From Patescibacteria group bacterium (GTDB lineage: Bacteria > Patescibacteriota > Microgenomatia > CAYGWK01), in assembly GCA_049322615.1 (NCBI GenBank), contig JBMORX010000010.1:25416-89415 (forward strand): DNA of 64,000 nucleotides, given 5' to 3'. This document shows, piece after piece, positions 35,138 through 64,000 of this stretch (positions are counted from its first letter, which is position 1; each line of letters starts with the position of its first letter). Below the pieces are notes generated by a model. It did no database searches. It saw only the letters and a list, made by a program, of their open reading frames with translations, and was not told the DNA's origin. The position numbers were made by a program, and so were the translations under genes.

Positions 35138-35174
<37 letters not shown>

Positions 35175-35218: not shown

Positions 35219-36128
35219 AACAAGAGTCGATTGTCGAGGTTAAACTCAGCTCATAACGGTGAAATCCTTATCATTTTAGAACCCAGCTTGAGAATGTTAA
35301 AATAAATGAGAGGACAATACCGTGGGAAGTTATTGGGAAAACAAAAACTTACAGAGACGATGGGTTCTTCTTAAGAAAGGCTTGCGATTGACACAAAAGC
35401 AGAGATCAGTGTTAATTGGTTCCTTACTTGGAGATGGAACATTGAGACGTGGCATAAGAGCAATCAATGTTAATTTTAAAGTTGAACACGGTTTGCGTCA
35501 GAAAGAATATGTTTTCTGGAAGTATCTGGTTTTCAGAAATTGGGTATTTACTGAACCTAAATTGAGTTACAGATATAGAGATAATGGGAAGAGATATTTA
35601 AAATCTTGGTGGTTTAGGACAGTTCGGCACCCTGTTTTAACCAAGTATTGGAAGCATTTTTACTCTGGCAGGAAAAAGATTATTCCAGATTTAATCGACA
35701 AACTGTTTGATTCATTGGTTTTGGCTGTTTGGGTCATGGATGACGGGTGTTATCAACACGGAAGAATTGATATTAGCACCTATGCTTTTACACTTAAAGA
35801 AATCCATCGTTTACAGGATGCATTAAGGACGGTGTTTGCTCTTGAATCTCACTATTTCAAGGATAGAGAAAAAGGTTATCGGATATATTTCTCTGTTTCG
35901 GAGACAAAGAAAGTTATAAATTTTATTCGTCCTTATATAATTCCTTCAATGCAGTATAAAATTGGTTTATCCCAACAACCCCGTAACGACTGATCCCTGA
36001 AGTATGCGCGCAAGTGCTTAATTTTGGGGTGAGATGGAAAGAATTCTTTCTTCCATCACACGCTGAGTCCTGGACTGTTTGGCCCAGGAAAGGTATAGTC
36101 TACACCATTAGTAATATTGGATTTTGTG
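35219..36128 (+). other. 23S intron with LAGLIDADG ORF in the peptidyl-transferase-centre region (after CACCUCGAU, ~E. coli 2500-2504)
   Basis: Exon ggcacctcgat ends at 35218 and gtcggctcatc resumes at 36129. Confidence 0.7.
35322..35993 (+). CDS. LAGLIDADG homing endonuclease (double-motif monomer)
   Basis: LIGSLLGDGTL and LAVWVMDDGCY motifs. 223 aa, GTG start. Confidence 0.8.
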   Translation: MGSYWENKNLQRRWVLLKKGLRLTQKQRSVLIGSLLGDGTLRRGIRAINVNFKVEHGLRQKEYVFWKYLVFRNWVFTEPKLSYRYRDNGKRYLKSWWFRTVRHPVLTKYWKHFYSGRKKIIPDLIDKLFDSLVLAVWVMDDGCYQHGRIDISTYAFTLKEIHRLQDALRTVFALESHYFKDREKGYRIYFSVSETKKVINFIRPYIIPSMQYKIGLSQQPRND

Positions 36129-42149: not shown

Positions 42150-42270
42150 AGAATAAATACCAATTAACCAATTATCCAATCAACTAATTATCCAATTTAA
42201 GATTTGTTGATTTGCTGATTAGATGATTAGTTGATTTGTTCCCCTTTTTGTGTTATCAATTTAATACTGA

Positions 42271-45202: not shown

Positions 45203-47164
45203 TTAGGGTGTCGGGCTAACCTCTGGCTCGACTCCAGTTGGGAGGCTTAGAGGAGGCTTTATTCCTGGGGGAAGCGGCTGGGGTTGACTAAGGGTTTCTG
45301 ATGGTTTTTGCGATTCTTTTTCCGCCTTTTCTCCTAATTTTTTCTTTAGGGCTTCAAGTTCGGAATTTGCTTTAGTAAAGTCATCAGAGTCTTTAGGAAC
45401 CAGGGAAAGAGTTGTTTCCATTGCGGAAACTGCTTTCTCGTAGTCTTTCTTTTCCCTTAAGGCAGCCGAAAGATTATAATGACCGTTGGCAAAATTTGGT
45501 TTAAGGGAAACTGTCTGTTCAAATAATCTTTGCGCCTCATCCCAGTTCTGCAGACTAAAATAAACTCCACCTAGGGAAAGTCTCAATTGGGGATTTGCTG
45601 GGTCAAGGCTGATTGCCTGCTGATAGGCGGCGATGGTCCAAGAATCTGACCCTTGGGCAAAATTAATTAAGGAACGATAAATTCCCGCTAAGTTTTCCCA
45701 AGAAATTGAATTTCTTGGGTCTAAAGCGACGGCTCCCTTTCCCTCTCTGATTGCCTGCTGGACTAAAATTGAGATATTCTGCCTGTCTTGGTCTGATAGT
45801 CCGCCAGCTGGCGGATTTGCCGCCAGGGAATTGGCTAAAGCCAAGTTTGTTTGCGAATAGGTCAGCCGATAATTAACTCGATAAGGAGCAAGGGTGATGG
45901 CTTGAATTTGGAAATTATAAGTTTCTGTTCCCTTGTTTTGGGCTAAGGCATCCAAGGAGCGCTTAAAATAAACTTCGGCGGCATAGGCTCGACCGATAAA
46001 GTACAAAGTGGAGAGGGCGAAGAGTGAAGTGGGGACGAAGATCACCCAGGGCAGGATTTTTGATTCCTCGGAGTATTCTTTGGTTGGAAGGCTTGCGGCC
46101 AAAAGAGCAAGTAAAAAGTAAAAAGTAAAAAGTAAAAGAAAATTGGCAGGAAGGACAAAAAACAGGAGCAGAGAGACTAAGAGACTAAGATACAAAGTGC
46201 TCTTAATATCATAATATCTTAATATCTTAATCTCCTTTAATATTTGCCAGATTAACCAGAGAAACATTCCTAAACCAATTACACCAACTGTTGTCAAAAG
46301 TTGAAGATAGAAGTCCGAAGAGACCCCGAATTTAACTGCCCAAAAATCTGAAAGATTGAAAGCCAAAGGTCTTAGTTGATTGAAGGCGACAATAAAACTC
46401 GTTGGACCAACCCCAAAAAGGGGAGCAAATTTTAAGGTTTCAATGGCAATCTGCCAGCCGGTTTGGATTGGGAGAAGGAGGGGTCGGGCACTGGTAAGCA
46501 ATTGATAAAGAGAAACACCTAATCCACCTAAAATAAATACCAATAATACCAATAAATACCAATAAGTACCAATAGAGAATCGGCGTTGATCAGCTTTTAA
46601 ATCAGCGTAAATCCGCGTGATGGTAAGCACCAGCGCCACCACCAGAAAGGTCGCCAAAGGTAAAAGACCACCGGCTGGGGTAAAGGTTTTTTGAACAAGC
46701 CAGACGGGAAGATTCAAATTCCAGACCTTGGCAAATTCTAAGAAAGAGAAAATGCTAATAAGTGCCAGGATACTGGCACTAGCAATATAGCAATATAGCA
46801 ATTTAGCAATATAGTTTTCTTTGAGATTGTTAACAATGATGAAGTAGAGAAGAGTTAGCGCCAGAATCGTTCCCGCTCCCCCAGGGAGAATGAGGGCTTC
46901 GGCTTTATTTGGGCTGACCGCAAAGGTTGAGAGCAAAAAAGCGGCGGTAATGGCTAAAACTGGGAGATCAAATGGTGTTCTTCTGAAAACAACCTTCTTT
47001 TCAAGAACCATCTTCAAAAGCCAAACAATTAGCAATATAGCAACATAGCAATAAAGCAAGATATTTTTATTAAATTCATAAAATTCCGAAGTTATCGGCA
47101 GGAAAAACAAAGGCAAAAGAAAAACTAAGATAATAAGCCCCCAGTTTATGATTTTGTTAAGCAT
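45203..47164 (-). CDS. O-antigen-ligase-like polytopic membrane protein with C-terminal TPR repeats
   Basis: More than 10 predicted TM segments, TPR-like repeats (AIAAYQQAISLDPANPQ..., AQRLFEQTVSLKPNFANGHYNL...), Pro-rich tail. Confidence 0.6.
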   Translation of the reverse strand: MLNKIINWGLIILVFLLPLFFLPITSEFYEFNKNILLYCYVAILLIVWLLKMVLEKKVVFRRTPFDLPVLAITAAFLLSTFAVSPNKAEALILPGGAGTILALTLLYFIIVNNLKENYIAKLLYCYIASASILALISIFSFLEFAKVWNLNLPVWLVQKTFTPAGGLLPLATFLVVALVLTITRIYADLKADQRRFSIGTYWYLLVLLVFILGGLGVSLYQLLTSARPLLLPIQTGWQIAIETLKFAPLFGVGPTSFIVAFNQLRPLAFNLSDFWAVKFGVSSDFYLQLLTTVGVIGLGMFLWLIWQILKEIKILRYYDIKSTLYLSLLVSLLLFFVLPANFLLLFTFYFLLALLAASLPTKEYSEESKILPWVIFVPTSLFALSTLYFIGRAYAAEVYFKRSLDALAQNKGTETYNFQIQAITLAPYRVNYRLTYSQTNLALANSLAANPPAGGLSDQDRQNISILVQQAIREGKGAVALDPRNSISWENLAGIYRSLINFAQGSDSWTIAAYQQAISLDPANPQLRLSLGGVYFSLQNWDEAQRLFEQTVSLKPNFANGHYNLSAALREKKDYEKAVSAMETTLSLVPKDSDDFTKANSELEALKKKLGEKAEKESQKPSETLSQPQPLPPGIKPPLSLPTGVEPEVSPTP

Positions 47165-50500: not shown

Positions 50501-53386
50501 ACTACCGGTATAGTCGAGTTTGGTTGTTCCTCCGCAATTTCCATCGGTACAAGAAAGATATTGACTTGAACCGGAAAATTCCCTGGCGCTTGAGAAAAAT
50601 CCGCTGTTGGTGACGGTTGCCCCGGTTGGGGTGAGGTCATTATTTAAGGAAGTTTCATCTTGAATATAAGCACTCGACCCTCCTGTTTCTTCTAAGTGCC
50701 AAAGACCTCGGGTATTGGCGTCTGTTTGGGGAGCGCCGACAGTGGATTTTAAGGAACCTGTACCTTCCATTTTAATCGTTGATTCATCGGTTTTGGTAAG
50801 CATCGTTGTACTTGAGGTTGACCAATTAGTGGCATCTGAATCCATTGAGGCAATAGCAGTTTCATTGGTGATTGGTCTCCACTCTTCCCAAGTGGAATTG
50901 TCAGCCGAGGTTCGGGTCTGAAATTCCACATCCGCCCCAACCCCGGCAACAGGTTCGGGAGAGGAGTATTGGTGGACCCTTAAGTCATCAACATAAAAAG
51001 TCGTAGTTCCGCCCCAATAGCCCTGAACCCTTATTTGGGTAATGGTTGTAATTTGTCCCGTAAGAGTTCCTACTTGGTTTCCATCTATAAAAAATGTTAT
51101 CTCACCAGTAGATTTCATCCTAATAGCAAATTTATGCCAGCCAGTGGTTCTAGCAACCGTTGTGGCAGTATAAGTGAAAGCTGTATTGTGATATACATAG
51201 TTAGTAGAAGAGCTATCTGTCCAAACTCCAATCCCAACTGTATTGGTGCCATCATATAACCGAATCACCTTAAAGGCGGTGGTGTCCGAGTCATCATACA
51301 TATCAAAAGTAAGATAAATATTGGGAGTAGTAAATGCCTTATAAGCCGTTATTGAGGTATCCACTGAGTTTGTCTGGACGAGCTTGCCGCTATAGCTACC
51401 TCTTTTTGCCTGCTCGGTTGAAGCTGACCAAGTGCCGGCAGTTGGATTGAGAACAGTCCAATCGCTAACATCCCCATCCTCAAAATTATCCCAAAAAGGG
51501 AAAGTAGCCGAGCCATTACTTCCGGTGCTGGCTCCGGAATTTCCATACCACATAAAGATAGTCGTAAAGGAACTGGCGGTGATTGAGTCCACCTCCACCC
51601 AAACCTTTGCCCAGGCGCCATCGGCTTTATCTTCAATCCAATAATCAAGACTTGTTCCTGAAGAATTAGTAAAGCGCAAATCATCAAAGTCTGTTTGCAT
51701 ATTGGAGTCATAGTCAACGTTGACTTTGACTTGATAATTAGTCAAAGTGTTGGAATTTTGGGTATTATCAATAATCACCGGTTTGTAGTTGCTCCAGCCT
51801 GGAAGTGAAGCGCTTGAAGAAGCAGTATCACTCCAAGATAAAGAATCAAGACTGGTAACTTTTGAAGTGCCGGAGGTTAGGTCAATTGAATCAGAAGTGT
51901 GGATTCCATAAGGAAATCTTTGGGCATCCTGGCGAATTTCCTCAGGGGTGCGGGCGATGTCAGAGATGCGGACTTCGTCAATTACACCATTAAAATAATC
52001 GCCACTATACCAAGACGCTTTACCAATTGTCGGGGCAGTGGTGTCTTGAGACAAGGCAGACGCAGTTCCAGTACCTGTCAAAATTCCATTTATATAGATT
52101 TTTATACTTGAACCATCCCAAGTGCCAGCAAGATGGCTCCATGTTCCGCTTGGAAGGGCAACCGTACTTGTTGCAGATGGGCATGTTGATGGGGTGCAGA
52201 TATTAAAAAATGGAATACCGCTACTTGTTACTTCTAATTTATAACCTATCCAATTCCCGCCATACTTTGAAAAAATAGCACAATTGGTATCGGCCCCTGT
52301 ACAGGTAAAATTAGTTGGTTTTACCCAGGCTTCAACAGTAACCGCTGATGTAGGTTTTAGTGAAGAAGAGTCAGAGAAAGAAATATAATCACTTGAACCG
52401 TTAAAACTCCGGGCATTGCCGAATTTGCCGGTGGTGACATTAGTGCTACTTGCTGATGTGCCGGTGTTTGAGTTTCCAGAGCTATCGGCGACAGTGGTGG
52501 TTCCTGAACTTTCATTCATATGCCATAATCCTACGGTCCGAATATCGGCTGCAAGTTCATGGTAGGGAAGCTCAAGTTTTGGCGAGGAGCCGGAACCAGC
52601 ATCGCTAATTCGATTGAAGGTGCCGGTGGAGAATTCAGAAGAGGTATCGTGGACGACCGAAGGGTCAATAATAACCGGATATTGGCGAGCCGGATGAGAA
52701 AGCCAGTCTGAAGAAGGCGAGATGATAATCTCGTAAGACGTAGAACCAGAAAGACTTGAACGCGAAACAACGCGGAGTTCAACCTCGGTGCTTCTGGCGC
52801 CCGCCGCATCAACCATAAAAGGCTTGGGAATATGGAAGCGATATTGACCATCTTGGGTGTCAATAAAGTAAGTTGAAACTCTGCCATCTAAGGATTTCCT
52901 TGGCACCGCATTCTTTAAATTAAGCGCGAATCTAAATTGCTTAATTGCTAGATTGCTAGATTGCTGATTGCTGAGAATAATTTCTTCCTTAATGCCTTTA
53001 TCGTTAAGCGAATATTTAATATCAATTCCCGGCTGGATATCTTTATAAAGAAGTGAGCTACAGTTCACCTCCGAGGTGGAAGAGGCTCCGCCTTCGGCGG
53101 AGAGACACCTCGGAGGTGGATTTCCAAATTCGGCAGGAGAAAATTCTGCGGACGAGTCTTCTTGTTCAAATTTGACTTTGGGTTTGTTTTCTTGAAGCCT
53201 ATCTCCCAGATATACTGCGAAATCTTTAGATATATTTTGATAGAGATAAGAGGTGGTTGGGGGAGCAGGTGATAATTGGGGGACAGAGGCTTTTTTGGGA
53301 GAAGGCTTAATTACGGAAAAAGCTATAATAATTATAATTATTATAATTGTTATAAATTTTATAATCTTTATAATTTTTTTCTTCAT
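47531..53386 (-). CDS. 1,951-aa surface protein with LamG-like, DUF2341-like and Fn3-like modules
   Basis: N-terminal TM. Repeated ...F.G.IDEVRIS..ARTPEEIR (LamG/laminin-G_3 C-terminal signature). LDYWIED...AKVWVEV...IFMWYGN (DUF2341-like). C-terminal Fn3-like repeats. Confidence 0.7.
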   Translation of the reverse strand: MKKKIIKIIKFITIIIIIIIIAFSVIKPSPKKASVPQLSPAPPTTSYLYQNISKDFAVYLGDRLQENKPKVKFEQEDSSAEFSPAEFGNPPPRCLSAEGGASSTSEVNCSSLLYKDIQPGIDIKYSLNDKGIKEEIILSNQQSSNLAIKQFRFALNLKNAVPRKSLDGRVSTYFIDTQDGQYRFHIPKPFMVDAAGARSTEVELRVVSRSSLSGSTSYEIIISPSSDWLSHPARQYPVIIDPSVVHDTSSEFSTGTFNRISDAGSGSSPKLELPYHELAADIRTVGLWHMNESSGTTTVADSSGNSNTGTSASSTNVTTGKFGNARSFNGSSDYISFSDSSSLKPTSAVTVEAWVKPTNFTCTGADTNCAIFSKYGGNWIGYKLEVTSSGIPFFNICTPSTCPSATSTVALPSGTWSHLAGTWDGSSIKIYINGILTGTGTASALSQDTTAPTIGKASWYSGDYFNGVIDEVRISDIARTPEEIRQDAQRFPYGIHTSDSIDLTSGTSKVTSLDSLSWSDTASSSASLPGWSNYKPVIIDNTQNSNTLTNYQVKVNVDYDSNMQTDFDDLRFTNSSGTSLDYWIEDKADGAWAKVWVEVDSITASSFTTIFMWYGNSGASTGSNGSATFPFWDNFEDGDVSDWTVLNPTAGTWSASTEQAKRGSYSGKLVQTNSVDTSITAYKAFTTPNIYLTFDMYDDSDTTAFKVIRLYDGTNTVGIGVWTDSSSTNYVYHNTAFTYTATTVARTTGWHKFAIRMKSTGEITFFIDGNQVGTLTGQITTITQIRVQGYWGGTTTFYVDDLRVHQYSSPEPVAGVGADVEFQTRTSADNSTWEEWRPITNETAIASMDSDATNWSTSSTTMLTKTDESTIKMEGTGSLKSTVGAPQTDANTRGLWHLEETGGSSAYIQDETSLNNDLTPTGATVTNSGFFSSAREFSGSSQYLSCTDGNCGGTTKLDYTGSGGWTVGAWVYPHANTDADHSIVTKGGDSGQYGYYLYVCGACSGSADGSLDFLVSSNGTALAGVSGTSAVPTYQWHLAVGVYDGSALKIYLDGALIGTTSYSSGIFDNTGSFGIGASMTSTPASFFDGIIDEPFVKATAMTAEEIAEAYRAGRDHRLQKTISSTDLSGKTKVPFYFAADRQGTIAETYIGETDHSVYGTDTNTRGLWHLDDQSTNLDDSSANNNDGTSYNSLRTVYSMTASGNSYAYIDLTGVADYVIQSGDYLEYDIYWTASLDKIAFDYTTSDGATLRDAGVVDQNNLNAHPNTDLDAKALGKWYHRKIALPSGHVGKTITYFDVACEDDTTSTRTGYFDAIAITNGSGTIRKVIYNAGSLSYANHLISNGSLTSLGNYAGPEHTITQGKIGNGRYFNGLNDYIGLPDIGVTEGTAYTVEFWAKAELGVFTTAPVVYSEGTPANWSNNLFIIYYGDNPSTNGGIRVWYRDSGGTGGSIITYSQSVSDGLWHHVAFVQSSASDRKLYLDSNQIGSDTTSRNALVVTNASIGAANNNGSMTQFYKGIIDEVRISNTARTPEEIRLAYQYSLRTHQVNVDFVTTAGSDGPTSTSDTQFTPDSTTGLYKGDTVIVRENYNGTLYIMQGEVSSISSGLVTVSSWSGTAPSGGYSTDADVFKWQREYWDIGDVSVADRNAIVRLGLRILDASEGFTMYLDDFRSNTNYLTTPGGSTISSTANRYIQYRAILSTNDTQVSPQLTSVTINYTINNRPNTPSLDSPTNAATNVSLTPALKTTATDTESDYLRYKIQVCTDSGMTQNCQTFDQTSSQTGWSGQNTQGGTAYTSGTQATYTVQSALSPLTTYYWRSYAIDPGGSNIWSTTQSPVYSFTTASFYPPTGCLIDDSGQPSQLIVKWQDNTAVETGYRIEKNTDSGGFTFLIDKAIDSTSHTDTNVSSGHTYQYRVRAEVSGGSSDWCMTQTVNLATGDMNISGVTVEGMTIK

Positions 53387-53946
53387 CTTGATTTTCCTTT
53401 CTTAAACTCTAGTCTTTTTCTAAACAGGTTTTCTCTAAATCCGCCCTCTTTGATAAATCTTTCCTCGGTCCAGCGGAGTTTTTGGTCTAACAGAGAGTTG
53501 GTTTGGTTGATAAGACAGATTAGGGTGTTGGCGGCCGTCTCGGGAGATTTCTGAATATAAATTTTATAATCTTTATAACTTTTATAATTTTTATAGGCGA
53601 TTCTTCGAATCGCCAGGGATCGAGGATCGTCTTTCAGCCAAAGAGTAAGTCCTCTTTGTCTTAAAAAATCTAAGAAGTCGTTTAGAAGTTCTTCGTAGGA
53701 GCCCCGAGAAACTCCTAGCATCTTTAATCTCCCTTCAACGCTTTTTTGGAGGTAGCCCTCGGCAATGCACTGTTTGCCGGATCTTGCGGCTTGAGTCATT
53801 TGCTCTTTTTGGCGAAGAGAGCGGATATAGCGGTCGCAAAACTCAACCGTTCCATCGTAAACAATCTCCGCCTGTTGGAAGAAGGGAAGGGTTTTATAAC
53901 CGCTAGGTTTCAAACTCTGCTTATAACCTTTATAATTTTTATCCAT
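53383..53946 (-). CDS. Four-helix-bundle suffix-domain protein
   Basis: QAARSGKQCIAEGY...SRGSYEELLNDFLDFLRQRGL..W matches my memory of the four-helix-bundle suffix family. ATGA overlap with the LamG gene. Confidence 0.6.
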   Translation of the reverse strand: MDKNYKGYKQSLKPSGYKTLPFFQQAEIVYDGTVEFCDRYIRSLRQKEQMTQAARSGKQCIAEGYLQKSVEGRLKMLGVSRGSYEELLNDFLDFLRQRGLTLWLKDDPRSLAIRRIAYKNYKSYKDYKIYIQKSPETAANTLICLINQTNSLLDQKLRWTEERFIKEGGFRENLFRKRLEFKKGKSR

Positions 53947-53947: not shown

Positions 53948-56900
53948 TTAATTTATTATCCACCAGTTAAACCTTATCTCTTGGTCAATTGGGGTATCAA
54001 TTCCAACCTTAAACCATTCGCCAGATTTCTTGGCCGAAACGTACAAGACCTTATTTTGAGTATCTGAAACTGGAGTAAGATAAACTAAAGTATTTTCGCT
54101 GACTTTTGGATTAAAAATTGTAAATTCAGTTGAGCCCGCAGGTAAAATTCCCAACCCCGAGGTGGCGTTAGTTCGGATTTCTGCCAGGCTTGCCGATTGG
54201 GTAGCCGAGTAATCGGCGGCAATGACCAGAGAGGCAAATTGGGCTGAACCCGAAGCATCGATTGAGGCGACGGTCTCCCCAAGCGGGTTTTGAATCGCCA
54301 AGAGCTTGCCAAAAGCAGATTCTTCTGGGGAGGTCGAACCTCCGGAGAGGTTCGACCTCTTAAGGACTAAACCAGAAGCCGAGATCTCACCGCCGACTGC
54401 CAGATTGCCGGCGACCTGAACATTGCCATCGGTATCAATCGTCATCTTTCCTGCCAGAATATCAACTGGTCCCCAACCAGAGGACTGAAGACGGAGGACA
54501 GAAGACGGAAGAGAGTTGATACCCGTGCTGTCGATAACAACTGCTCCATCAACCATTAATTGTCCAGCCACAGTCGTGTCAGCCAAAGAGGTTCGGCCTA
54601 AAACCTTTAAGTTTGCGGTGATTTTCAGGTCAGAAGAAGGATCGGTGATTGGCCAAGATTGAGTCTCAGCTAAAAGACTGCTTGCAGTTGCGGTTTCGTT
54701 GGCATATGATAGAGTTGGCGTGGGGTTGGCAGGTTGGCTGGATGGGCTTGTCAAGCCACGTCCATCGGGTTCAACTCCCGACAGCTCCACGCCCTCTTGA
54801 GATTGGGACTTGACAGGCGTGTTATTATCTGTTATATTATTGTCAAGCTTGACAGGCCCATCTATTAGCGAACTTGCTGGACTTACCAGAGCCGCTTCAT
54901 TTGAGGCGGTTTTTTGGTTCTCGAGATTTTCTAACCTTGCCAATAATTCTCCAAAGCTGCCCCTTAAGGCGCTTATTTCTTTAGTTTCTATCTTGTCCGC
55001 GTAGAGGGTGCCGGAAACCGTCGCATCTTGGGTTACTTGTAACGTCTCACTTGTCACCTGTCCGGCGAAGCTTGCTGAGCCGGAAGAATCTATACTCGCC
55101 ACCGTTTCTCCTTGCTCATTCTGAACCAGAAGCTTGCCGAAGCCAGATCCTTCGGAGGTCGAACCTCCTTGGAGGTTCGACCTCTTAAGGGAAATCACGA
55201 TTTCCGAAGAGTCTGGTAATGGTGAAATAATTCCAGTCTCAACCACCGGCGAGATAATCTTCTTCTCGGCGATTAATCTTTGTCCAAAAATCGTTCCTGC
55301 TTCGTCAATTGAGGCAATGGTTTTACCAAGAGAGTCTTTAATCTCAAGAACTTTTTCAGCTACATCAACTGCCTTCTTGGTGTTAATAACTACCTTATTT
55401 AAAGTGGCTACTCCCAATTCGTCAATTAACCAATTGCCGTCCGTTGATTTAATAGTCTTAGTCACTATTTCCTGGGCTTGTATTTGTTCCTCTGGTGGTG
55501 AGTCTTGGTTCCAAGAGAGATTGGCAAAGGCGGTAACTTCTCCTAGGGCATTGATGTCTCCATTGGTTTCAAAGGGAGAAAGGGCGATTCCGATAGTTCT
55601 TACTTTACCGGTCGCCTTCATTGCCCGACCCGGGACAGGTGAGGCCGTCAAGAAATCGCCTCTTTTGATCGAGCCGCCAATTCCAGAAACCTTAACTGGA
55701 ACACGACCCGCAAGAGCAAGAGGATATTTAAATTTAGCTTCGGGCATATCGCCGTCAAGAGTTATAGCGGGCGCAGTCGAAATAATACCCAAAACATCCC
55801 CTTGATTAGCCTTTGTAGTCCTTACCAGGTTTTCGTTGTTATTTGGGTCAACAGCAACTAGTTCTCCCGGTTCAAGGGGCATACTAGCGGGAAACATTTC
55901 TGCTAAATCAAAACCGTTAGATAGACGACAACATTGAGCATACCAACCCGGATTACAAGTTCCGGGGCAGGAGCCTCCCCCTGAAACAGAGGTACATTTA
56001 TAAGTGGTGGAAATATTACTACAAGCAGTATTCCCGGTTATACCATTGCAATCTGCGGAAGTTGTACATTCAATATTTAACGCCGTACCACTTTTTCTTA
56101 TTTGACCAGTAAAGTTAATATCTCCGGAAACATCTAATTTATAGGAGGGCCCCGTCGTCCCGATGCCGACGTTGCCGTTCATATAAATCTTACCTTCACT
56201 ATCTACAATTTCCCCATAACCCGCATGCTTATACATCTGAATGTATGCACCAGCAGTACCTTCGTACAATCTTAATTTCGCTTCGCTACCACTTGTAGAT
56301 GTTCCAGCAACAATGTCCCCTGCAACTGCCAATTTAAAATTTGAACCAAGATTATTCCAGATATTAGAACCAACTTGTGTGAGATACGCTGGACTCGTCG
56401 TCCCGATGCCGACATTGCTACCATCCAGAGTCATTACATTCGCAACACCGAGATTAGTGAAAGTCAATTTACTACTTAAATTTTCGATTCTCCAGGTTTT
56501 TCCTGCGGTAGAGTTTGTAAGGTCCAGTTGGACATCGCCAGCACGTTCAATATCTAAAGCAACTGTTGGACTTGTCGTCCCGATTCCGATATTGCCAGCG
56601 TTGGTAATTCTTAGCCTTTCTGTTGCTCCGGCGTCGCCTCCAACCGAGGTATAAAAAGCCAAATCGCCAGCGTTTAAGGTATAAATCTTGGAAAGTCCGG
56701 AAGTGGGGAGAAGAGTAAGATTGGGGGTGCCGGAAATTGAGGCAATTCCACCCATCGTTAAATTGCCAACATTAATTAAGTTGTCACTTGCAAGAGAAAT
56801 ATTATTTGAGGCAGCGTTAATGGTAATATCTCCTGAACTATTGCTAATTAAAGATTGGGCGCCGCCAACAGTCAAACTTCCACTTTGGGTGGAGGAACCG

Positions 56901-59900
56901 CCGGCATCCAAAGACCATTTAGAAACACCATTATTTTGAATATCAAAGAGTTTCCTGCCAGTAGAGAGAGTATTTGCGGTATTGAAAAGATAAGCAGTAT
57001 TTGAGCCGGTATCAGCCACCGTTGAAAGCAAGGTTAATTGTCCGCTTGCGCCAATGGTAAAAGAGGTATAATTTGAGGCATTGTAGGCAAGCCTTAATTG
57101 CTCGGTTGTCTTTAAGACCTCCAAAAGAGCGTTCGGTGAAGTCGTCCCGATGCCGACGTTGCCGGCGACTAAAAGGGAATTGGTGGAAGCGGCTGGGTCT
57201 AAGAAATAGGCAGTATTGGCGGTATCCACAAACCGAGCGGCATTAACATAGTTTGAAGAATCAATCGTCACTCCGCCGGAATTAAAAGAAGCGGTTCCGG
57301 TGGTAGTAATATTGCCGGCATTAGAAATTGTAAATCTGGGGGTGCCAGAGGAGGAGGCGGTAAAGATGTCATTTACTGTTCCGGTTTCATTTAGGATGGT
57401 CAAAGCCTTGCCGGTGGTAGTGCCATCAACATGAAGTTTGGTTAAAGGAGAGGTGGTGCCAATGCCGACGTTGCCAGAAATATACGTGTTGTGTGCCAAA
57501 ATCCCGTTACCGACAAAGTTATGAGTCCCCTCAACCTCTATGTCATAAACTTGTTCTTCTCCTACATACTTAATGGATTGGATTTTGTCCCACACCACAT
57601 ATGGTTCGGAGTTCGAAGAGCGAAGATCGGAGAAAGAAACGGTAGCGATAGAATCGCCAGGCTGGAGATAGATTACTTTTGACCAGAGGAGGTTTTGAGA
57701 TAATTGATGAGGCTGGTAATCATTTTGCGAATCTGATGGGTTTGTCCCAACAGAGGCTTGATTTGCTGTTCCGTCAGATAGCCTAATTCCACTGCCAGTC
57801 TGAGACAGGCTACTACCTCGAAGAGGCTGCCTCTGGCTTGATAGAGAAACTGGATAAACTCTGTCTTGTGATACCTGCCCGACCCCTCGGCTAGGTTGAG
57901 GAGAATCGAGACCACCGCTCTCCTTAACTGATCCGCCAGACCATACTGTTCGTGTTTGGGAAAATTCGTAATCAGTTGATAAACTGCCTTGACTAAGATC
58001 ATAGTCTTTTTCCAAACCTCCAGTTTCTCGAAGTTGAACTCTTCGTTGGTATTCATCATAAGTTAATTGTACCAGATAGGGATGGTTACCAGTAGTTCTA
58101 ATTTCTTTGCCGCTTTCAGTCTTGAGCTTAAAGACTGGTTTAATCCCCATGTCCAAAAGTTTGTTAATCTTCGCTGGTTGAACTTTACCTGTCTGCTCAT
58201 TCCTTGAGTAAACCAGTGTTCCTGGTTGAACATCTTTAATCTGAACTTCGCTCTTCGAACTTCGATCTTCAGAAACTTCACCTTGTTTATCTAGGTCTTG
58301 AGTAACAATAGAGAGGAGGGTATCACCGGTAACGCACTGACCTTCAACGTGAAGTTTCTGAACAGGCCCCGTCGTCCCGATGCCGACGTTGCCGCTTACA
58401 TATAAAATATTGTTCCCTGCCCCTGGACTTCCACCTACTCCAAACCCCCCGCTGGTATAGAATTGCCCCCACCCAGTCGAGTAAATAATACCCGCTTGAG
58501 TATTATCTGTACGAGTGCTTTCAATAAGAGCAGTATCTGAATCAGCCGCAAAATTCAATGCAGCATTATTAAACCCAGCGCCGATGATAACATTACCTCC
58601 ACTAACATGTAACTTCGCCCCCGGTCCCGTCGTCCCGATGCCGACGTTGCCGGAGGCTAATAACATCGTGTCACTGCTACGTCCACTCTCTCGAAATCCC
58701 AAACCGGCACTTGAGGTAATTCTTGCGTTATTGCTGTCAAAAGTCAGAATATTTCCATAGTTTAAGGTTTCAACACCTTGGGTAGTAACTGTCCAACGAT
58801 TAGCCGTCCCATCTGACAAAATCAGTGAGGGATTTGACGAAGAAGAATCCTGAACAACAAATCTCGCCCCCGGCCCCGTCGTCCCGATGCCGACGTTGCC
58901 GGCGTTAGTGATGGTCATTCTTGGAGTTAGTCCCGCATCTCCACCAACCGAGGTCTGGAAATCAAGCCTTGAGCCATTTAAGACATCAATCGTTCCTGGC
59001 GAGGTTCCTCGTAAAACCAAACTCCCTGAAGCCGAGGCATCTCCGACAATATCAAGCGAATCATCAGTCTTAAGCCAATTGGCGGCCGAGCGGTAAAGAT
59101 TAGTGTCAGTTCCAAAAGTAATTCCCGAGGCAGCGTCGCCATCAGTTGAGGCAAGTTGTAAAGAGTAAGTATCGGCATCAGCAATATAAAGACCAATATC
59201 AGTTGAGCCGCCAGCAGTTTGATTGCCAATGTAGATACCATAATTGTTGGAAAGGGTTCCGCCACCACTATTTATGGCATCACCAACATAAAAGCCGTAG
59301 GCGTTAGTTATTGTTCCGGTTGAGAGATTGGACCGACTGGTATAAAACGAATAGGCATTGTTAACTGTTCCATTAGAGGTGTTTTCTATCGAAGCATAAT
59401 TGCCGGCTGCTTGGGTAACAGTTCCCGAGCCGGCATGGATCGCCTTGGCGTTGGTTCCCCACAGGGCACCGATATTTTGCGCTCCCATTCCGTAAGCCTG
59501 TGCCTGGTGTCCATAGAAGTTGGCGGTTGAGGCGGAGGCTGGGTTGGCGACAGCTTCGGTGTAGAGAGCGGTTACCTCTCCACTGGTGTTTGTAAAAACT
59601 TCTCTAGACATTGTGGTTTTAGTTGTGTCAAAGAAACCGCCGGAGCCGAGGGCAACGTTGCTAGCAGCGAAAAATTGATCATCTGTTCCCAATCTGTTTG
59701 CCGCCGAGCGGTAAAGGTTGGTGTCAGGAGCCCCTGAACCTGAACCCCATCGAAGATAACCAGCACTTGCTCCGGTACCAATGACTTGAAAGTAGGCAGA
59801 ATTGGTGGCAGTTCCTCCAATTAAAAGATCATCAGTAATATTAGTGGGGGATAAAGCCCCGGCGTTTCTCTGCCAATATCCGGAGGTTCCTGTTCCCGGA

Positions 59901-62900
59901 GCGTAGATATTATTAACATAAAGATTATTCCAATATAAAGCAGAGGAGCCCAGATTGTAAGTAGAGGTAGCTGAAGGAAGAAGATTAGCCGTTAAGGAAA
60001 CATCTCCTCCTGAAGGAGCGATGGTTAAATCGCCCCCTGAAGAAACAGTAAAGGTTGTCTGATTTGAACCATCATATTCTAATTCTAGTTGAGTCGCTGT
60101 GCCACGCACCGACAGCTTGCTGTCTGGTGCTGTGGTCCCGATGCCGACGTTGCCGCCAGATTTTAAGTACACCTGATTTGCCGTTGTATCTGTCCCTAAA
60201 GCCACATCAGATCCGCTTGCAGTATTTCGTATTCTTGCAACTCCAGGACTTCCAGGATTTTCTATGGTAATGTCCCCATTGTAGATGTGAAGTTTAGTAC
60301 TTGGTCCCGTCGTCCCGATGCCGACATTGCCTACCGTATTTACCGTCAAAGCCGGTGTCCAAGAGTTAACTCCGGATTTGTAGTCAAGAGTAAGTATGCC
60401 ATTAGTTCTTGGTCTGACTGCTCCTCCCGAAGCAAGATACAGATTACTGGAAACAGAAGCATCGCCGGAGACATCAAGTGTAGCTAAAGGAGAGGTGGTC
60501 CCAATCCCAATCTGACTGCCAGTTTCGTAGATTATCGAATCAGTTAAAGATGAAGAAGTACTCCATTTCGGAATGTAATTTTGCGTTCCTGAACCCGAAA
60601 CCCCACTTGCTCCTGAAGCAACTGCCTTCCAAGAAGAACCATCACAATAGTAGTATTCATCTTGGGCATTGTCATAGTACATTTTCCCTTCAGAGGAAGC
60701 ATTACAAGTTCCGGCATATGCCTGAACTTGCGGACCAAGGGAAAGAGTACCGGAAATAGTCGCATCCTCGGCCAAAGTTAAATCATTGAGAATATAGGTA
60801 TTATGAGCGACAATCCCATTAGCGACAAAATTATGGGTTCCCTCAACCTCAATATCATAGACCTGCTCATGACCTACATACTCAATTGAGGCAATTTTTG
60901 CCCACTTGACTCGGCTGCCAATTCCTTCACCATCCGAGGAGTCCTTCGGCCACCTCGGAGGTGTTCCCTTGGCAGCCTCGTCCGAAGTGTCAGCAACGGC
61001 AATTTCCATTCCCGGCTTAAGGTAAATTACCTTAGTCCATTGTCCATTGACAGGAGAATGATTATCTGTTAGATTGTTTTTAATGGTTTTTGATTTAAAG
61101 CTAGCCAAATTGCTTTCTGATTTTTTCTTAGACATTGCCAAGGCATTTTTTATTGCAACTTTTGTAACACCATCCTTAACAGGAGTCTCTTCAACCCCTG
61201 AACTATTTTTAATATTGACAAAGGGATTAGGTAATGTTACGATGTTTTTAGTCCTTTCCTGGTATTTAGCTAAATTGGAGGAAAGATTATGAATCAAATC
61301 AACTGGCTTGATGTTTTCAACTCGGCGACTACCTTTGGTGTTTTGACTGTTATTGCCGTTGCCTTGTTGTTCTTGCTTTTCCGAAGAGATTTCGGCTCCA
61401 AATCCACCAAGCGATGAGAGTTTAACCAGATACGGATGGTTTCCGGTTGTTCTTATCTGTCTTCCGTCTTCAGTCGTCAGTCTATAGACTGGTTTGACCC
61501 CCATATCCAACAATCCCTTGATTTTCGCCGGCTCGATTTTACCAGTTTTTTCGTTTAAGGAAAGAACATATTCTCCACCTTTAATGTCCTTGATCTGGAC
61601 GAAGGAGATATTAGGTGATTTTTCTTTTTTGTTTTCGCTCTTAGTATCATAGTCTCTTAGTATCTTAGTATCTTCTGTTGCCACGATTGGTAAAAGACTG
61701 TCTCCTGTAACACATTGTCCTTCTACATGGAGCTTTTGGGTAGGACTCGTCGTCCCGATGCCGACGTTGCCGCTACTTCTTTGAATAAACATTCTCGGTG
61801 TCCCTGGATACGCCGCCGATTCATCAGAGATTTGAAAATCCCCATTGGTCGTTGTCATCTGCATACCCCATGAATATGAACCTCTCTGTATCAAGGCTAT
61901 TGCAGGCATGTAAGCCGTACTGCTAACCTCTGCCAAAATTTGACCCTCTGTAGTGGAATCCTTTTTTACATTGAGTGCCCAGCTTGGCCCCGTCGTCCCG
62001 ATGCCGACGTTGCCATCATTTCGGACATAAAGTAGGGAAGTCCCCGAGGAATTGTAAACCTGAAGTCCGGCTTTAGTTGAGTCGGCGGTTGAACCTTGGA
62101 TATAAGTATTGTGAGCCACAATCCCGTTAGCGACAAAGTTAGCCGTATTGGCAATTTGAAGATCATAGACATGCCTTGTACCGGTTTTTTTAATAGAAAC
62201 AATTTTCTCCCAGCCTAGGGTAGGAGACTTGACATCGCCACTTTCATTTATGCTAGAATGGGAATCGGTGAGGAAATTATCTTCAGACCAGCGGAGAGCA
62301 TTTACAGAATTTTGGGCTAATTTTGCCGTTGTTTGGTTAGCCGCAGGGGTTGTCCCCTCATTTGTGACCGGTAAAATTAGTGTTGAAGAAGTTAAATCAG
62401 TGGTCGCCTCTCTCGTTTGGGGTGGAGTTTCTTTATTGTTTATGCTATATTTTAGTAGAGGAGGCAAGAAATGAATTTCTGGCCGGCTTATGCCCTCGCC
62501 TCGGCGATGACGGCGGCGATTATTGTTTTCATTTATTTTCTTGTTAGAAAAGGATAAATTATGTCTGATACCACGGCCACGGTTGTCATCTTGTTGTCCA
62601 TGGTTATTGCTGTCTTTGTTCTCTGGCGTCTTTCCCGCGAGCGTTGAGGAGACCCCTTTAGTCAAGACGGCGATTTCCTGATTTTTATTAAGATAGACGA
62701 CCTTTTCCCAACCTTCTTTAGTTAAGTACGGATGATTTCCGGTGGTTTCGATTCTTTTTCCTGATTCGGTTTTTAGTTCATAGACTTCCTGAATACCTTT
62801 ATCCAGAGTTTTTTCCACTTTCTGCCATTCAAATTTGCCAGTTTGTTCGTTTAAAGAAAGGACTTGGTCGCCAGGTTTTATATCTTTAATCTTCTCTCTT

Positions 62901-64000
62901 CGCCCTTCTCTCTTCTCACTTCTCTCTTCGCCCTTCTCTCTTCTCACTTCTATTAAGGAATTCTCTTCCACACATTCGCCGATGACCTTAAGTTTATTTG
63001 TTCCCGGGTCGGTCGTTCCAATTCCGACATTCCCTAAATTATTAACCGTCAAGGCCGGTGTCCAGGAGTCGACTCCGGATTTATAGGAAAGAGAAAGACT
63101 ACCGCTGGTCCTTGGTCTGACTTCTCCTCCGGCGGCAAGATATAAGTTCCCGGAAACCGAAGCATCTCCAGAAACATCAAGTTTAGCCAGGGGAGAAGTT
63201 GTTCCAATTCCAATCTGGGAACCAGTCTCATAAATAATAGAGTCAGTCAAAGTCGAGGAAGTAGACCACTTGGGAATATAATTTTGTGTTCCCGAACCCG
63301 AGACGCCACTTGTTCCTGAAGCCACTGCTTTCCAAGAAGAACCATCACAGTAGTAGTATTCATTATTAGCATTGTCATAGTACATCTTTCCTTCAGAAGA
63401 AGCGTTACAAGTCCCAGCGTAAGCCTGAACCTGGGGTCCTAAAGCCAAAGTCCCAGAGATAGTGGCATTACCGGCAATATCGAGTTTCTGCGATGGAGAA
63501 GTTGTCCCGATGCCGACGTTGCCGCTATCAATGACCATTCTCGTGCCACCTTGATAGAAACTGAGTTTTCCTCCAGTATCAATATTTTTGCCAATTATCC
63601 ATTTGGTAGAATCTGCATCACCTGTAGCAAAGAAGCCGATTGAAGCTTCTGCATTGGCAGTTGAAGCAATTGCCTGAATTTGGCCATAACTAGTTGTACC
63701 GTACACTGACAGTTTTGCGCTTGGTCCCGTCGTCCCGATGCCGACGTTGCCATTCGTTATCGTCATTGTCTCTGTTCCACCGGCTACTAGACCTAATTTA
63801 TCTGCCGCAGTGCTGTAAAGACCGGTATTTGTATCACCTGTAAATGTTAAAGATGGCGTTGCCGCCGCCCCTGCTGGTAAGAGAGCATATCCAGAAGAAT
63901 TCACTCCAAACAGATCACCAGAACCAACGGTGAGGAGATAGGCAGGTGAAGCATCCCCGATGCCGACGTTGCCGGTTGTATCTATGACTACTTTGCCCCT
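53948..64000 (-). CDS. Giant repeat protein (>3,350 aa, 5' end outside the window) with GNVGIGTT.P repeats and three inteins
   Basis: ORF 53948..63904 stays open to the window edge (upstream codons read RGKVVIDTTGNVGIGDASPAYLL...). At least 20 GNVGIGTT(S/G/A/D)P..KL.V.G repeats of tail-fibre-like type. Cys-rich module and DLAEMFP motif near the C-terminal third. Confidence 0.85.
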   Translation of the reverse strand, partial: RGKVVIDTTGNVGIGDASPAYLLTVGSGDLFGVNSSGYALLPAGAAATPSLTFTGDTNTGLYSTAADKLGLVAGGTETMTITNGNVGIGTTGPSAKLSVYGTTSYGQIQAIASTANAEASIGFFATGDADSTKWIIGKNIDTGGKLSFYQGGTRMVIDSGNVGIGTTSPSQKLDIAGNATISGTLALGPQVQAYAGTCNASSEGKMYYDNANNEYYYCDGSSWKAVASGTSGVSGSGTQNYIPKWSTSSTLTDSIIYETGSQIGIGTTSPLAKLDVSGDASVSGNLYLAAGGEVRPRTSGSLSLSYKSGVDSWTPALTVNNLGNVGIGTTDPGTNKLKVIGECVEENSLIEVRREKGEERSEKREGRREKIKDIKPGDQVLSLNEQTGKFEWQKVEKTLDKGIQEVYELKTESGKRIETTGNHPYLTKEGWEKVVYLNKNQEIAVLTKGVSSTLAGKTPENKDSNNHGQQDDNRGRGIRHNLSFSNKKINENNNRRRHRRGEGISRPEIHFLPPLLKYSINNKETPPQTREATTDLTSSTLILPVTNEGTTPAANQTTAKLAQNSVNALRWSEDNFLTDSHSSINESGDVKSPTLGWEKIVSIKKTGTRHVYDLQIANTANFVANGIVAHNTYIQGSTADSTKAGLQVYNSSGTSLLYVRNDGNVGIGTTGPSWALNVKKDSTTEGQILAEVSSTAYMPAIALIQRGSYSWGMQMTTTNGDFQISDESAAYPGTPRMFIQRSSGNVGIGTTSPTQKLHVEGQCVTGDSLLPIVATEDTKILRDYDTKSENKKEKSPNISFVQIKDIKGGEYVLSLNEKTGKIEPAKIKGLLDMGVKPVYRLTTEDGRQIRTTGNHPYLVKLSSLGGFGAEISSEKQEQQGNGNNSQNTKGSRRVENIKPVDLIHNLSSNLAKYQERTKNIVTLPNPFVNIKNSSGVEETPVKDGVTKVAIKNALAMSKKKSESNLASFKSKTIKNNLTDNHSPVNGQWTKVIYLKPGMEIAVADTSDEAAKGTPPRWPKDSSDGEGIGSRVKWAKIASIEYVGHEQVYDIEVEGTHNFVANGIVAHNTYILNDLTLAEDATISGTLSLGPQVQAYAGTCNASSEGKMYYDNAQDEYYYCDGSSWKAVASGASGVSGSGTQNYIPKWSTSSSLTDSIIYETGSQIGIGTTSPLATLDVSGDASVSSNLYLASGGAVRPRTNGILTLDYKSGVNSWTPALTVNTVGNVGIGTTGPSTKLHIYNGDITIENPGSPGVARIRNTASGSDVALGTDTTANQVYLKSGGNVGIGTTAPDSKLSVRGTATQLELEYDGSNQTTFTVSSGGDLTIAPSGGDVSLTANLLPSATSTYNLGSSALYWNNLYVNNIYAPGTGTSGYWQRNAGALSPTNITDDLLIGGTATNSAYFQVIGTGASAGYLRWGSGSGAPDTNLYRSAANRLGTDDQFFAASNVALGSGGFFDTTKTTMSREVFTNTSGEVTALYTEAVANPASASTANFYGHQAQAYGMGAQNIGALWGTNAKAIHAGSGTVTQAAGNYASIENTSNGTVNNAYSFYTSRSNLSTGTITNAYGFYVGDAINSGGGTLSNNYGIYIGNQTAGGSTDIGLYIADADTYSLQLASTDGDAASGITFGTDTNLYRSAANWLKTDDSLDIVGDASASGSLVLRGTSPGTIDVLNGSRLDFQTSVGGDAGLTPRMTITNAGNVGIGTTGPGARFVVQDSSSSNPSLILSDGTANRWTVTTQGVETLNYGNILTFDSNNARITSSAGLGFRESGRSSDTMLLASGNVGIGTTGPGAKLHVSGGNVIIGAGFNNAALNFAADSDTALIESTRTDNTQAGIIYSTGWGQFYTSGGFGVGGSPGAGNNILYVSGNVGIGTTGPVQKLHVEGQCVTGDTLLSIVTQDLDKQGEVSEDRSSKSEVQIKDVQPGTLVYSRNEQTGKVQPAKINKLLDMGIKPVFKLKTESGKEIRTTGNHPYLVQLTYDEYQRRVQLRETGGLEKDYDLSQGSLSTDYEFSQTRTVWSGGSVKESGGLDSPQPSRGVGQVSQDRVYPVSLSSQRQPLRGSSLSQTGSGIRLSDGTANQASVGTNPSDSQNDYQPHQLSQNLLWSKVIYLQPGDSIATVSFSDLRSSNSEPYVVWDKIQSIKYVGEEQVYDIEVEGTHNFVGNGILAHNTYISGNVGIGTTSPLTKLHVDGTTTGKALTILNETGTVNDIFTASSSGTPRFTISNAGNITTTGTASFNSGGVTIDSSNYVNAARFVDTANTAYFLDPAASTNSLLVAGNVGIGTTSPNALLEVLKTTEQLRLAYNASNYTSFTIGASGQLTLLSTVADTGSNTAYLFNTANTLSTGRKLFDIQNNGVSKWSLDAGGSSTQSGSLTVGGAQSLISNSSGDITINAASNNISLASDNLINVGNLTMGGIASISGTPNLTLLPTSGLSKIYTLNAGDLAFYTSVGGDAGATERLRITNAGNIGIGTTSPTVALDIERAGDVQLDLTNSTAGKTWRIENLSSKLTFTNLGVANVMTLDGSNVGIGTTSPAYLTQVGSNIWNNLGSNFKLAVAGDIVAGTSTSGSEAKLRLYEGTAGAYIQMYKHAGYGEIVDSEGKIYMNGNVGIGTTGPSYKLDVSGDINFTGQIRKSGTALNIECTTSADCNGITGNTACSNISTTYKCTSVSGGGSCPGTCNPGWYAQCCRLSNGFDLAEMFPASMPLEPGELVAVDPNNNENLVRTTKANQGDVLGIISTAPAITLDGDMPEAKFKYPLALAGRVPVKVSGIGGSIKRGDFLTASPVPGRAMKATGKVRTIGIALSPFETNGDINALGEVTAFANLSWNQDSPPEEQIQAQEIVTKTIKSTDGNWLIDELGVATLNKVVINTKKAVDVAEKVLEIKDSLGKTIASIDEAGTIFGQRLIAEKKIISPVVETGIISPLPDSSEIVISLKRSNLQGGSTSEGSGFGKLLVQNEQGETVASIDSSGSASFAGQVTSETLQVTQDATVSGTLYADKIETKEISALRGSFGELLARLENLENQKTASNEAALVSPASSLIDGPVKLDNNITDNNTPVKSQSQEGVELSGVEPDGRGLTSPSSQPANPTPTLSYANETATASSLLAETQSWPITDPSSDLKITANLKVLGRTSLADTTVAGQLMVDGAVVIDSTGINSLPSSVLRLQSSGWGPVDILAGKMTIDTDGNVQVAGNLAVGGEISASGLVLKRSNLSGGSTSPEESAFGKLLAIQNPLGETVASIDASGSAQFASLVIAADYSATQSASLAEIRTNATSGLGILPAGSTEFTIFNPKVSENTLVYLTPVSDTQNKVLYVSAKKSGEWFKVGIDTPIDQEIRFNWWIIN
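57488..58336 (-). other. Mini-intein 3 (residues 1857-2139)
   Basis: GQ|CVTGDTLLSIV, TTGNHPYLV, VYDIEVEGTHNFVGNGILAHN|T. Confidence 0.8.
57673..58059 (-). CDS. Four-helix-bundle protein (23S rRNA intervening-sequence protein family) nested in intein 3 in a different frame
   Basis: FEKLEVWKKTMILVKAVYQLITNFPKHEQYGLADQLRRAVVSILLNLAEGSGRYHKTEFIQFLYQARGSLFEV matches the four-helix-bundle (S23p-like) family pattern. Same strand as the giant ORF, frame offset 1. Confidence 0.75.
   Translation of the reverse strand: MMNTNEEFNFEKLEVWKKTMILVKAVYQLITNFPKHEQYGLADQLRRAVVSILLNLAEGSGRYHKTEFIQFLYQARGSLFEVVACLRLAVELGYLTEQQIKPLLGQTHQIRKMITSLINYLKTSSGQK
60800..61714 (-). other. Mini-intein 2 (residues 731-1035)
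   Basis: GQ|CVTGDSLLPIV, TTGNHPYLV, VYDIEVEGTHNFVANGIVAHN|T. Confidence 0.8.
62108..62974 (-). other. Mini-intein 1 (residues 311-599 of the listed ORF)
   Basis: C1 in GE|CVEENSLIEV, block B TTGNHPYL, blocks F/G VYDLQIANTANFVANGIVAHN|T. Confidence 0.8.

Follow-up and report, generated by a model that had tools for sequence, protein, structure and literature searches.

A four-helix-bundle gene nested in an alternative frame of an intein in a patescibacterial giant gene

The stretch of DNA analysed here, 64,000 nucleotides (nt) of contig JBMORX010000010.1 from a Patescibacteria group bacterium and hereafter called the window, encodes on its minus strand a giant GNVGIGTT-repeat protein that carries three inteins. 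The third intein holds, in an alternative frame of its own coding sequence, an intact open reading frame (ORF) of 128 codons for a four-helix-bundle protein of the family known from intervening sequences (IVSs) of ribosomal RNA. The two genes share ~380 nt in which one frame is under amino-acid constraint and the other is only kept free of stops, an arrangement found at nine diverged loci. All coordinates are positions in the window; L and P numbers denote related loci and related proteins, respectively. The features of the locus are the following.

53948 to beyond 64000, minus strand: giant GNVGIGTT-repeat protein gene, open to the window end
62974–62108, minus strand: intein 1, uninterrupted (NHPYLTKEGWEKVVYL) where intein 3 holds the ORF
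61714–60800, minus strand: intein 2, with an insert of ~125 amino acids (aa) at the same site as that of intein 3
58336–57488, minus strand: mini-intein 3 (283 aa), DnaB-type Hint fold, PF14890 Intein_splicing E 1.1e-20
58240–58270, minus strand: N arm, a 7-nt-periodic tandem repeat of GAAGNNC units (coding strand) in the Hint loop after block A, residues ~23–33
57673–58059, minus strand: nested ORF, 128 aa plus stop codon, TIGR02436/PF05635, in frame +1 of the host
57686–58063, minus strand: insert as read in the host frame, 126 codons without a stop, unconstrained and predicted to be disordered
57606–57631, minus strand: C arm, complement of the N arm, filling the canonical linker before block F, residues ~236–244
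53383–53946, minus strand: second family member, 187 aa, suffix type, TIGR04258 E 1.5e-16, free-standing between two giant genes

Intein 3 and its host gene

The full-length product of the giant gene is present in a representative library as P0108 (5631 aa), in which the insert of intein 3 occupies residues 4261–4386. Each of the three Hint/intein domains lies between GNVGIGTT repeats and matches Pfam Intein_splicing, and all three inteins start with Cys, end with His-Asn and are followed by Thr. Intein 3 retains the full set of signatures, namely C1 (CVTGD...), block B (TTGNHPY), the terminal ...LAHN and the +1 Thr, and the solved structures nearest to it are those of the DnaB mini-inteins 4o1r and 1mi8. 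It shares 64% identity with the ORF-bearing inteins of other genomes, as against 35–47% with inteins 1 and 2 of the same gene. Its Hint domain, its motifs and the purifying selection described below predict that it splices. In an AlphaFold2 model built from a three-sequence alignment only, the Hint core reaches a predicted local distance difference test (pLDDT) score of 70–90, and the three segments with pLDDT below 50 (residues 14–28, 105–216 and 237–242) correspond to the N arm, the insert and the C arm.

A full-length member of the rRNA-IVS protein family

The original prediction had placed the 128-aa ORF in the four-helix-bundle family of rRNA IVSs from a few quoted motifs. These motifs are present, and profile searches extend the assignment to the full length of the family, with matches to TIGR02436 (E 1.3e-36, 125.1 bits against a cutoff of 24, positions 1–109 of 109) and to PF05635 (E 3.9e-38, 130.3 bits against a cutoff of 33.8, positions 1–105 of 106). 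The ORF contains YGLADQLRRAVVSILLNLAEG, which satisfies the conserved family motif GxxRxxxSxxxNxxE (PMC3936711). Among 101 sequences, Q44 and G59 are invariant and L41, R47, A48, S51, N55, A57 and E58 are at least 90% conserved. An AlphaFold2 model of the ORF product (101 homologs, pLDDT 94.3) shows four helices, at residues 14–32, 41–60, 65–91 and 97–125. Foldseek superposes this model on Xcc0516 (2gsc) with template modelling (TM) scores of 0.87/0.95, a root mean square deviation of 1.0 and 38% identity, and on BT_0352 (2rld) with TM scores of ~0.75/0.86; more distant matches are found with Avd (4dwl, 8ub7). The solved relatives have five chains per entry. Profile searches with the ORF and with the host-frame intein gave no match to nuclease families.

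As had been stated, the ORF lies inside intein 3 on the same strand as the giant gene and in another frame, offset by one: counted from the host the ORF occupies frame +1, and counted from the ORF the host occupies frame +2. A family hidden Markov model (HMM) run over six-frame translations of the window finds this ORF and, weakly, the 187-aa ORF only; an impression of a helix-bundle relic in frame 1 of intein 1 received no support from this search. The 187-aa protein, encoded immediately downstream of the giant gene, is indeed a second family member by its TIGR04258 match, and no flanking arms were detected around its gene.

The insertion site

The insert is placed between NHPYLVQL and WSKVIYLQPGDSIATV (WSKVIYL), in the turn directly after block B. 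The ATG of the ORF follows NHPYLVQL by two codons, and its stop codon overlaps the WSKVI codons. Alignment with the Ssp and Npu DnaB mini-inteins (1mi8, 4o1r) puts this site ~17 residues upstream of the canonical endonuclease linker, so the claim that the ORF sits exactly where a homing endonuclease would be found has to be amended: the insert lies one β-strand earlier. At the corresponding position the aligned sequence of intein 1, NHPYLTKEGWEKVVYLNKNQEIAV, is unbroken, and an unrelated insert occupies the canonical linker, the classical endonuclease site, of that intein. Judged from this alignment, intein 1 represents the empty state of the site of the ORF insertion. The insert of intein 2 is unrelated to that of intein 3 and yields no helix-bundle remnant in any frame in the six-frame search with the family HMM; paired arms are likewise lacking in intein 2.

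A further in-frame insert at the site after block B, of ~230 residues, is seen in the first intein of L034 (P0113, residues ~560–900; NHPYFTLDKPLITHG...KWVKVGGIKEGQYVATV). It is unlike the others and does not have the appearance of low-complexity read-through.

Conservation of the nested arrangement

Related loci were collected through the DNA of the closest relatives, through genome and metagenome scans, and through a search with the host-frame peptide against 1.84 billion representatives. A word-indexed protein search with that peptide returned nothing; the exhaustive search of representatives found other hosts. Eight intein-borne instances are available as DNA (the window, L001, which is the same as L026, L003, L004, L025, L033, L034 and L035), and the seven outside the window all belong to the candidate phyla radiation (CPR), L001 being from Candidatus Roizmanbacteria and L004 from Patescibacteria. 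Further hosts are known as proteins only (P0109, P0111, P0112 and P0114–P0117). A ninth nested copy, in L032, lies in a gene without an intein and is described below.

Every nested locus with DNA has an intact helix-bundle ORF (HMM E 1e-42 to 1e-52) in the same relation to the host frame. Across the nine loci these ORFs are 47–77% identical in amino-acid sequence (they differ by 23–53%), with synonymous sites near saturation, and the start codon is conserved. The family as a whole yields more than 100 homologs, with free-standing members in Bacteroidota, Thermodesulfobacteriota, Omnitrophota and others. The closest relatives of the 128-aa ORF in the protein database are 71–77% identical to it, and its own sequence is not among the hits. 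One locus, L019 (Candidatus Blackburnbacteria), is a case of decay, in which the ORF breaks off after codon 43, another element stands in its place, and the host frame is still open. Another candidate, L002 (ENA ERZ1026796 NODE_21266), was judged chimeric (1.2x coverage), and its second half was used qualitatively only; its junction falls at the conserved motif EFIQFLYQARGS, on one side of which lies a high-GC thioredoxin-reductase locus that has a helix-bundle gene of its own, and on the other an intein-borne copy of CPR type.

The searchable literature contains no report of a helix-bundle gene nested in an intein. The arrangement is conserved, statistically unambiguous and, in that literature, unreported. 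At L001 (PEVA01000126.1) the NCBI annotation called the small ORF only; in the window, the giant host is the one represented (P0108, in the representative library), and the 128-aa ORF has no database entry of its own among the hits. Gene callers thus report one of two overlapping genes at such loci.

An open host frame that is not due to chance

The host frame is open across the ORF and encodes the peptide that the original prediction had quoted. Stops arise in this frame where an ORF codon ending in T is followed by a codon starting with AA, AG or GA. The ORF of the window has 34 such at-risk sites; none carries T, 11.8 being expected from the codon usage of the window, which gives a stop-free alternative frame a probability of ~2e-8. 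Resampling of codons for the same protein sequence with window usage produced a mean of ~11 stops and not one open frame in 20,000 trials, and synonymous shuffling within the gene left the host frame open in at most 1e-4 of trials. The open host frame is not a product of chance.

The same holds wherever the ORF is nested. In nine of nine nested genes the host frame has no stops, and the third frame has 7–16; in 22 free-standing relatives from other phyla, the frame corresponding to that of the host contains 5–17. At at-risk sites, a third-position T is found in 0/331 cases in nested genes and in 271/899 in free-standing ones; elsewhere in the same genes the counts are 222/795 and 610/1780, respectively.

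Purifying selection switches frame at the insert

Comparison of the window with L001 and L003 inside the insert gives ratios of nonsynonymous to synonymous substitution rates (dN/dS) of 0.10–0.21 in the helix-bundle frame versus 1.07–1.62 in the host frame. In the Hint segments on either side it is the host frame that is constrained, with dN/dS of 0.05–0.12 over 110 codons in four of six locus pairs; in the remaining two, synonymous sites are saturated and the proportion of nonsynonymous differences is 0.12–0.15. Purifying selection thus switches frame at the boundaries of the insert. By this comparative measure, selection maintains both the intein and the small protein, and demands of the read-through peptide only that no stop arise. 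The suggestion that the host frame is selected against stops only is therefore upheld, and comparison with homologous inteins identifies the ORF frame, intact in eight intein loci, as the conserved one.

These results decide between two accounts of the origin and status of the ORF and the one favoured here. The term 'overprinted', used in the original prediction, implies a gene born de novo in an alternative frame of the intein linker, and the ORF does fill the insert almost exactly, from an ATG two codons after block B to a stop within the WSKVI codons. The ORF nevertheless belongs, over its full length, to an ancient family (E 1e-36 to 1e-38) that also has free-standing genes in several phyla, its site is uninterrupted in intein 1, and the peptide of the host frame, which would be the older one, is the unconstrained one. 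Birth in place is effectively refuted. Because the family is old and widespread and has free-standing relatives, the ORF must have arrived by insertion. Alternatively, the ORF could be a decaying relic or a frameshift fusion, so that only the open host frame matters, as might be thought from L019, which lost its ORF and kept its host frame open, and from the failure to detect start signals before the ORF of the window. This is very unlikely given an ORF that is intact in nine loci, has a dN/dS of 0.10–0.21 with synonymous sites near saturation, and has a conserved start codon; stops just upstream in the ORF frame at several loci show, in addition, that a fusion product is not conserved.

We infer from purifying selection only that the ORF is translated separately, from its own ATG. 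A promoter scan found no sigma-70-type promoter before the ORF. An extended -10-like sequence, TGGTACAAT, just 5′ of the ATG may simply reflect the HPYLVQL codons and is missing from L004, and a terminator-like hairpin after the ORF was discounted, as it overlaps the conserved GD.IA codons. A Shine–Dalgarno motif is missing at 13 of the 18 starts checked in the window, so its absence at the ORF is normal here. AAGGAG precedes the nested ORF in L032 and L035.

Inverted heptamer arms enclose the ORF

Two segments of intein 3, 58240–58265 and 57606–57631, form an inverted repeat of 26 nt that is 88% complementary, with 608 nt between the arms. When the RNA of 57590–58285 (minus strand) is folded, the minimum free energy (MFE) structure is closed by the arm stem (z -3.35), and we infer that the arms may pair in the mRNA as a stem of 20–31 bp. 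The other ORF-bearing inteins have an arm pair at the same two places with different sequences (four copies of AGTTCAC in L001, four of GTTCAGA in L025). Inverted-repeat scores within a locus are 16–23 versus a mean of 7.7 between loci, and in six of six loci none of 500 shuffles reached the observed score; the pair is weaker in L034 and strong in L032. What is conserved is the complementarity of the arms and not the peptides that they encode. No arm pair is present in inteins 1 and 2 or in L019. The N loop of intein 1 contains a solo heptamer array (62890–62951, 8.9 copies) that has no complementary partner.

Such arms are not confined to inteins. Free-standing family genes of Bacteroidota, Thermodesulfobacteriota, Omnitrophota and others are flanked, within ~20–60 nt, by inverted arrays of ~7-nt units (for example GGTGACT, TGTTTAA, GTGACGA and AGTNNGG), and comparison of these flanks with random positions in the same loci gives p = 7e-10 for the inverted-repeat score and p = 1e-3 to 1e-5 for the 7-nt periodicity. 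Inverted arrays of this kind around family genes are undescribed in the searchable literature. They give the opaque 23S_rRNA_IVP or 'S23p' family a concrete genetic context, and may explain its presence in rRNA, in cas and ribosomal operons and beside retroelements. The set of free-standing flanks comprises L005–L031, L036 and L038. Within it, the units of arms and ORF, hereafter cassettes, stand beside tRNA genes in L029 and L031, and within operons in L038 (NusA-[cassette]-S12-S7-EF-G) and L036 (between two response-regulator genes). The window itself is rich in tandem arrays of 7–10 nt (for example 21629–21735, 26978–27051, 42159–42240 and 46109–47063), several of them inside ORFs; some are adjacent inverted pairs, that is, hairpins consisting of arms only. 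It contains a single cassette loaded with an ORF.

The arms raise the question of whether domestication has turned the cassette into a regulator of the giant gene, with the arm stem, alone or with bound protein, controlling cleavage, stability or translation of the mRNA. The arms co-vary and persist within coding loops although synonymous divergence is saturated, their stem closes the MFE structure, and a second family member is encoded directly downstream in the same operon. Units of arms plus ORF are, however, found in unrelated contexts in many phyla, L019 has lost both ORF and arms with its host gene still open, and inteins 1 and 2 do without a cassette, all of which makes such a role improbable. 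A use of the stem by the cassette itself, as an RNase III or protein-binding site comparable to that employed in the excision of rRNA IVSs, is conceivable by analogy, and we put it forward with some doubt.

A cassette in an ordinary coding sequence

In L032 the host protein (P0119, 1019 aa) has no Hint domain, and the cassette lies in frame within an ordinary ORF. A heptamer arm of GCTGGGA type is followed by the Shine–Dalgarno sequence AAGGAG, then by an intact helix-bundle ORF of 120 aa, which occupies frame +1 of the host, and, right after the stop of that ORF, by the complementary arm (arm score 19 over 31 nt). The host frame is open throughout. Eight homologs of P0119 (30–57% identity) align across the site without the insert of ~150 residues and thus represent empty sites. 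P0119 also has an in-frame hairpin of arms only. The nearest relatives of the L032 ORF are the intergenic copies P0008 (61%) and P0009 (56%), with 11–12 stops in the frame concerned. A single pre-adapted, 'transparent' lineage behind all nested copies, which had been entertained, is unlikely for this reason, and the stop-free state probably arose at least twice.

This locus also bears on the possibility that the four-helix-bundle protein is an intein mobility factor that replaced the homing endonuclease and spreads the intein among GNVGIGTT sites. The ORF does lie inside a mini-intein devoid of endonuclease, the intein sites share an extein motif across different proteins and repeats, intein 3 is closer to the ORF-bearing inteins of other genomes than to its two neighbours (64% versus 35–47%), and rRNA insertions of CPR bacteria hold 23S_rRNA_IVP ORFs where LAGLIDADG genes predominate (PMC11270868). 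Yet the ORF has no detectable nuclease domain or motif, the insert is off the endonuclease site, and the cassette also occupies a non-intein ORF and intergenic sites that have no intein nearby. The fold, moreover, is that of the Avd/Xcc0516 bundles, which are pentamers that bind nucleic acids or proteins. A mobility function is, in our estimate, decidedly improbable.

Other insertions in the window

In agreement with the original prediction, the rRNA genes of the window carry insertions: the 16S gene (22676–25051) spans 2376 nt, including a group I intron, and the 23S gene (31503–35313) spans 3811 nt. A six-frame HMM search found no helix-bundle family members in these rRNAs. Two hairpin-loop insertions in domain I of the 23S rRNA (~32084–32195 and ~32482–32606, near model positions ~270 and 583) carry tandem arrays of ~10 nt (CGCTGAA... 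and TTCAGCG...), which are mutually complementary, with arms of 39–41 nt, across ~370 nt of genuine rRNA. This pair was not used as a parallel to the split arms of the intein, because it may represent two hairpin elements of one family.

An element of ~210 nt (54706–54917) is translated in frame within the giant gene, outside the inteins. Its antisense strand contains a tRNA-like cloverleaf (54722–54792, plus strand) that matches the Rfam tmRNA/tRNA-like domain with 26 bits (E 1.5e-7), below the gathering threshold, and, by eye, a near-consensus TTGACA-17-TATATT promoter-like site and a terminator-like hairpin (GCCGC...GGCGGTTTTTT). A copy with 71% identity (E 2e-23) lies right after the helix-bundle ORF in the intein of L001 (816–1024), and in L019 (~3140–3320, 3716–3787) a piece related to the element replaces the lost part of the ORF. 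It appears to be an in-frame insertion element of a second type, likewise devoid of stops. A tRNA search of the giant gene and the related loci found none with ARAGORN or at the Rfam gathering threshold, only tRNA-like hits below it. The region encoding the C-terminal part of the giant protein (54000–55200, minus strand) also contains the near-repeats KRSNLQGGSTSEGSGFGKLLVQNEQGETVASIDSSGSASFAG and KRSNLSGGSTSPEESAFGKLLAIQNPLGETVASIDASGSAQFAS.

Discussion

The nested gene is best explained, with a probability that we put at roughly 0.8, by a selfish cassette of the IVS type for which the intein provides a safe harbour at the protein level. A pre-existing cassette, made up of a TIGR02436/PF05635 ORF and inverted arms of ~7-nt repeats, would have settled in the coding DNA of a DnaB-type mini-intein that belongs to a giant protein of surface type. 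The host ribosome would read through it in frame +2 of the ORF, selection having purged the codon choices that make stops. The resulting peptide of ~126 residues, probably disordered, would hang from the surface turn after block B and be discarded with the intein at protein splicing, and the intein would thereby shelter the cassette at the level of the protein as an rRNA helix does at that of the RNA. The four-helix-bundle protein would be made separately, from its own ATG.

Several points weigh against this scheme. A fresh cassette would carry ~11 stops into the host frame, and the route from there to the stop-free state is unaccounted for. The arms of the intein are set apart from the ORF by essential Hint-coding segments, for which a single simple insertion is inadequate. 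An RNase III-cleavable stem within its mRNA would be costly to the host. Finally, the scan of the window showed no recognisable promoter or Shine–Dalgarno motif before the ATG of the ORF, and the making of both products is predicted from sequence.

If the safe-harbour reading is extended to the family at large, TIGR02436 genes would be the cargo of widespread, undescribed mobile cassettes of stem plus ORF that end in inverted ~7-nt arrays and colonise rRNA helices, intergenic spots, protein loops and inteins. Such cassettes would be translationally transparent in one alternative frame when within coding sequence, and the arrays would act as cis sites for the pentameric protein and/or RNase III. 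This generalization is a serious candidate, to which we nevertheless give slightly less than even odds. An intein that harbours a gene outside the intein protein would extend the parallel between inteins, introns and rRNA IVSs.

Comparison with known systems

The solved structures closest to the nested ORF product, Xcc0516 (2gsc) and BT_0352 (2rld), are annotated in the PDB as hypothetical or of unknown function and thus inform on fold rather than on function. Avd, the accessory protein of diversity-generating retroelements, has the same fold and belongs to the same superfamily (PF22296 hit; Foldseek matches to 4dwl and 8ub7), but the ORF scores 39.5 bits with NF033474, below the cutoff of 80, and the structurally aligned sequences are ~11% identical. 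Beside the ORF, where the exteins of the giant gene lie, no retroelement partner is seen, although no scan of the window for reverse transcriptase was made.

Endonuclease-bearing inteins likewise hold selfish cargo that is nested in the intein and discarded with it, in a Hint fold that tolerates a large insertion. Their cargo, however, is an in-frame domain that occupies the canonical linker, whereas that of intein 3 is a separate gene in another frame, has no nuclease motif, and is inserted in the turn after block B. Rickettsia palindromic elements and miniature inverted-repeat transposable elements offer a second parallel, in-frame insertions of inverted repeats being known from Rickettsia (PMC10969869): as with the cassette, inverted repeats lie within ORFs, in permissive loops, and are read through without stops. 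The empty-site homologs and the in-frame arms-only hairpin of P0119 are traits of the same kind. The Rickettsia elements are ~150 bp long and carry no independent gene, whereas the cassette encodes a conserved protein of 120–128 aa in a frame other than that of the read-through.

The closest counterpart is the IVS of rRNA, a selfish, S23p-encoding element that RNase III cuts out at the stem (PMC4990558). Such IVSs, with S23p or 23S_rRNA_IVP ORFs, are found in Leptospira, Coxiella and rRNA insertions of CPR bacteria (PMC11270868), and encode the same protein family as the nested ORF, so that the link to a cargo typical of rRNA insertions was aptly drawn in the original prediction. In both cases, inverted arms able to form a long stem enclose the ORF, and the element sits where the insert is later removed from the host molecule. 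The two differ in their host, which is an rRNA in one case and a protein-coding gene in the other, in the position of the arms, which in the intein occupy two separate Hint loops instead of flanking the ORF directly, and in the mode of removal, by RNase III for the IVS and, as predicted, by protein splicing for the cassette of intein 3. Removal by protein splicing would impose on the cassette a second constraint, an alternative frame kept free of stops.

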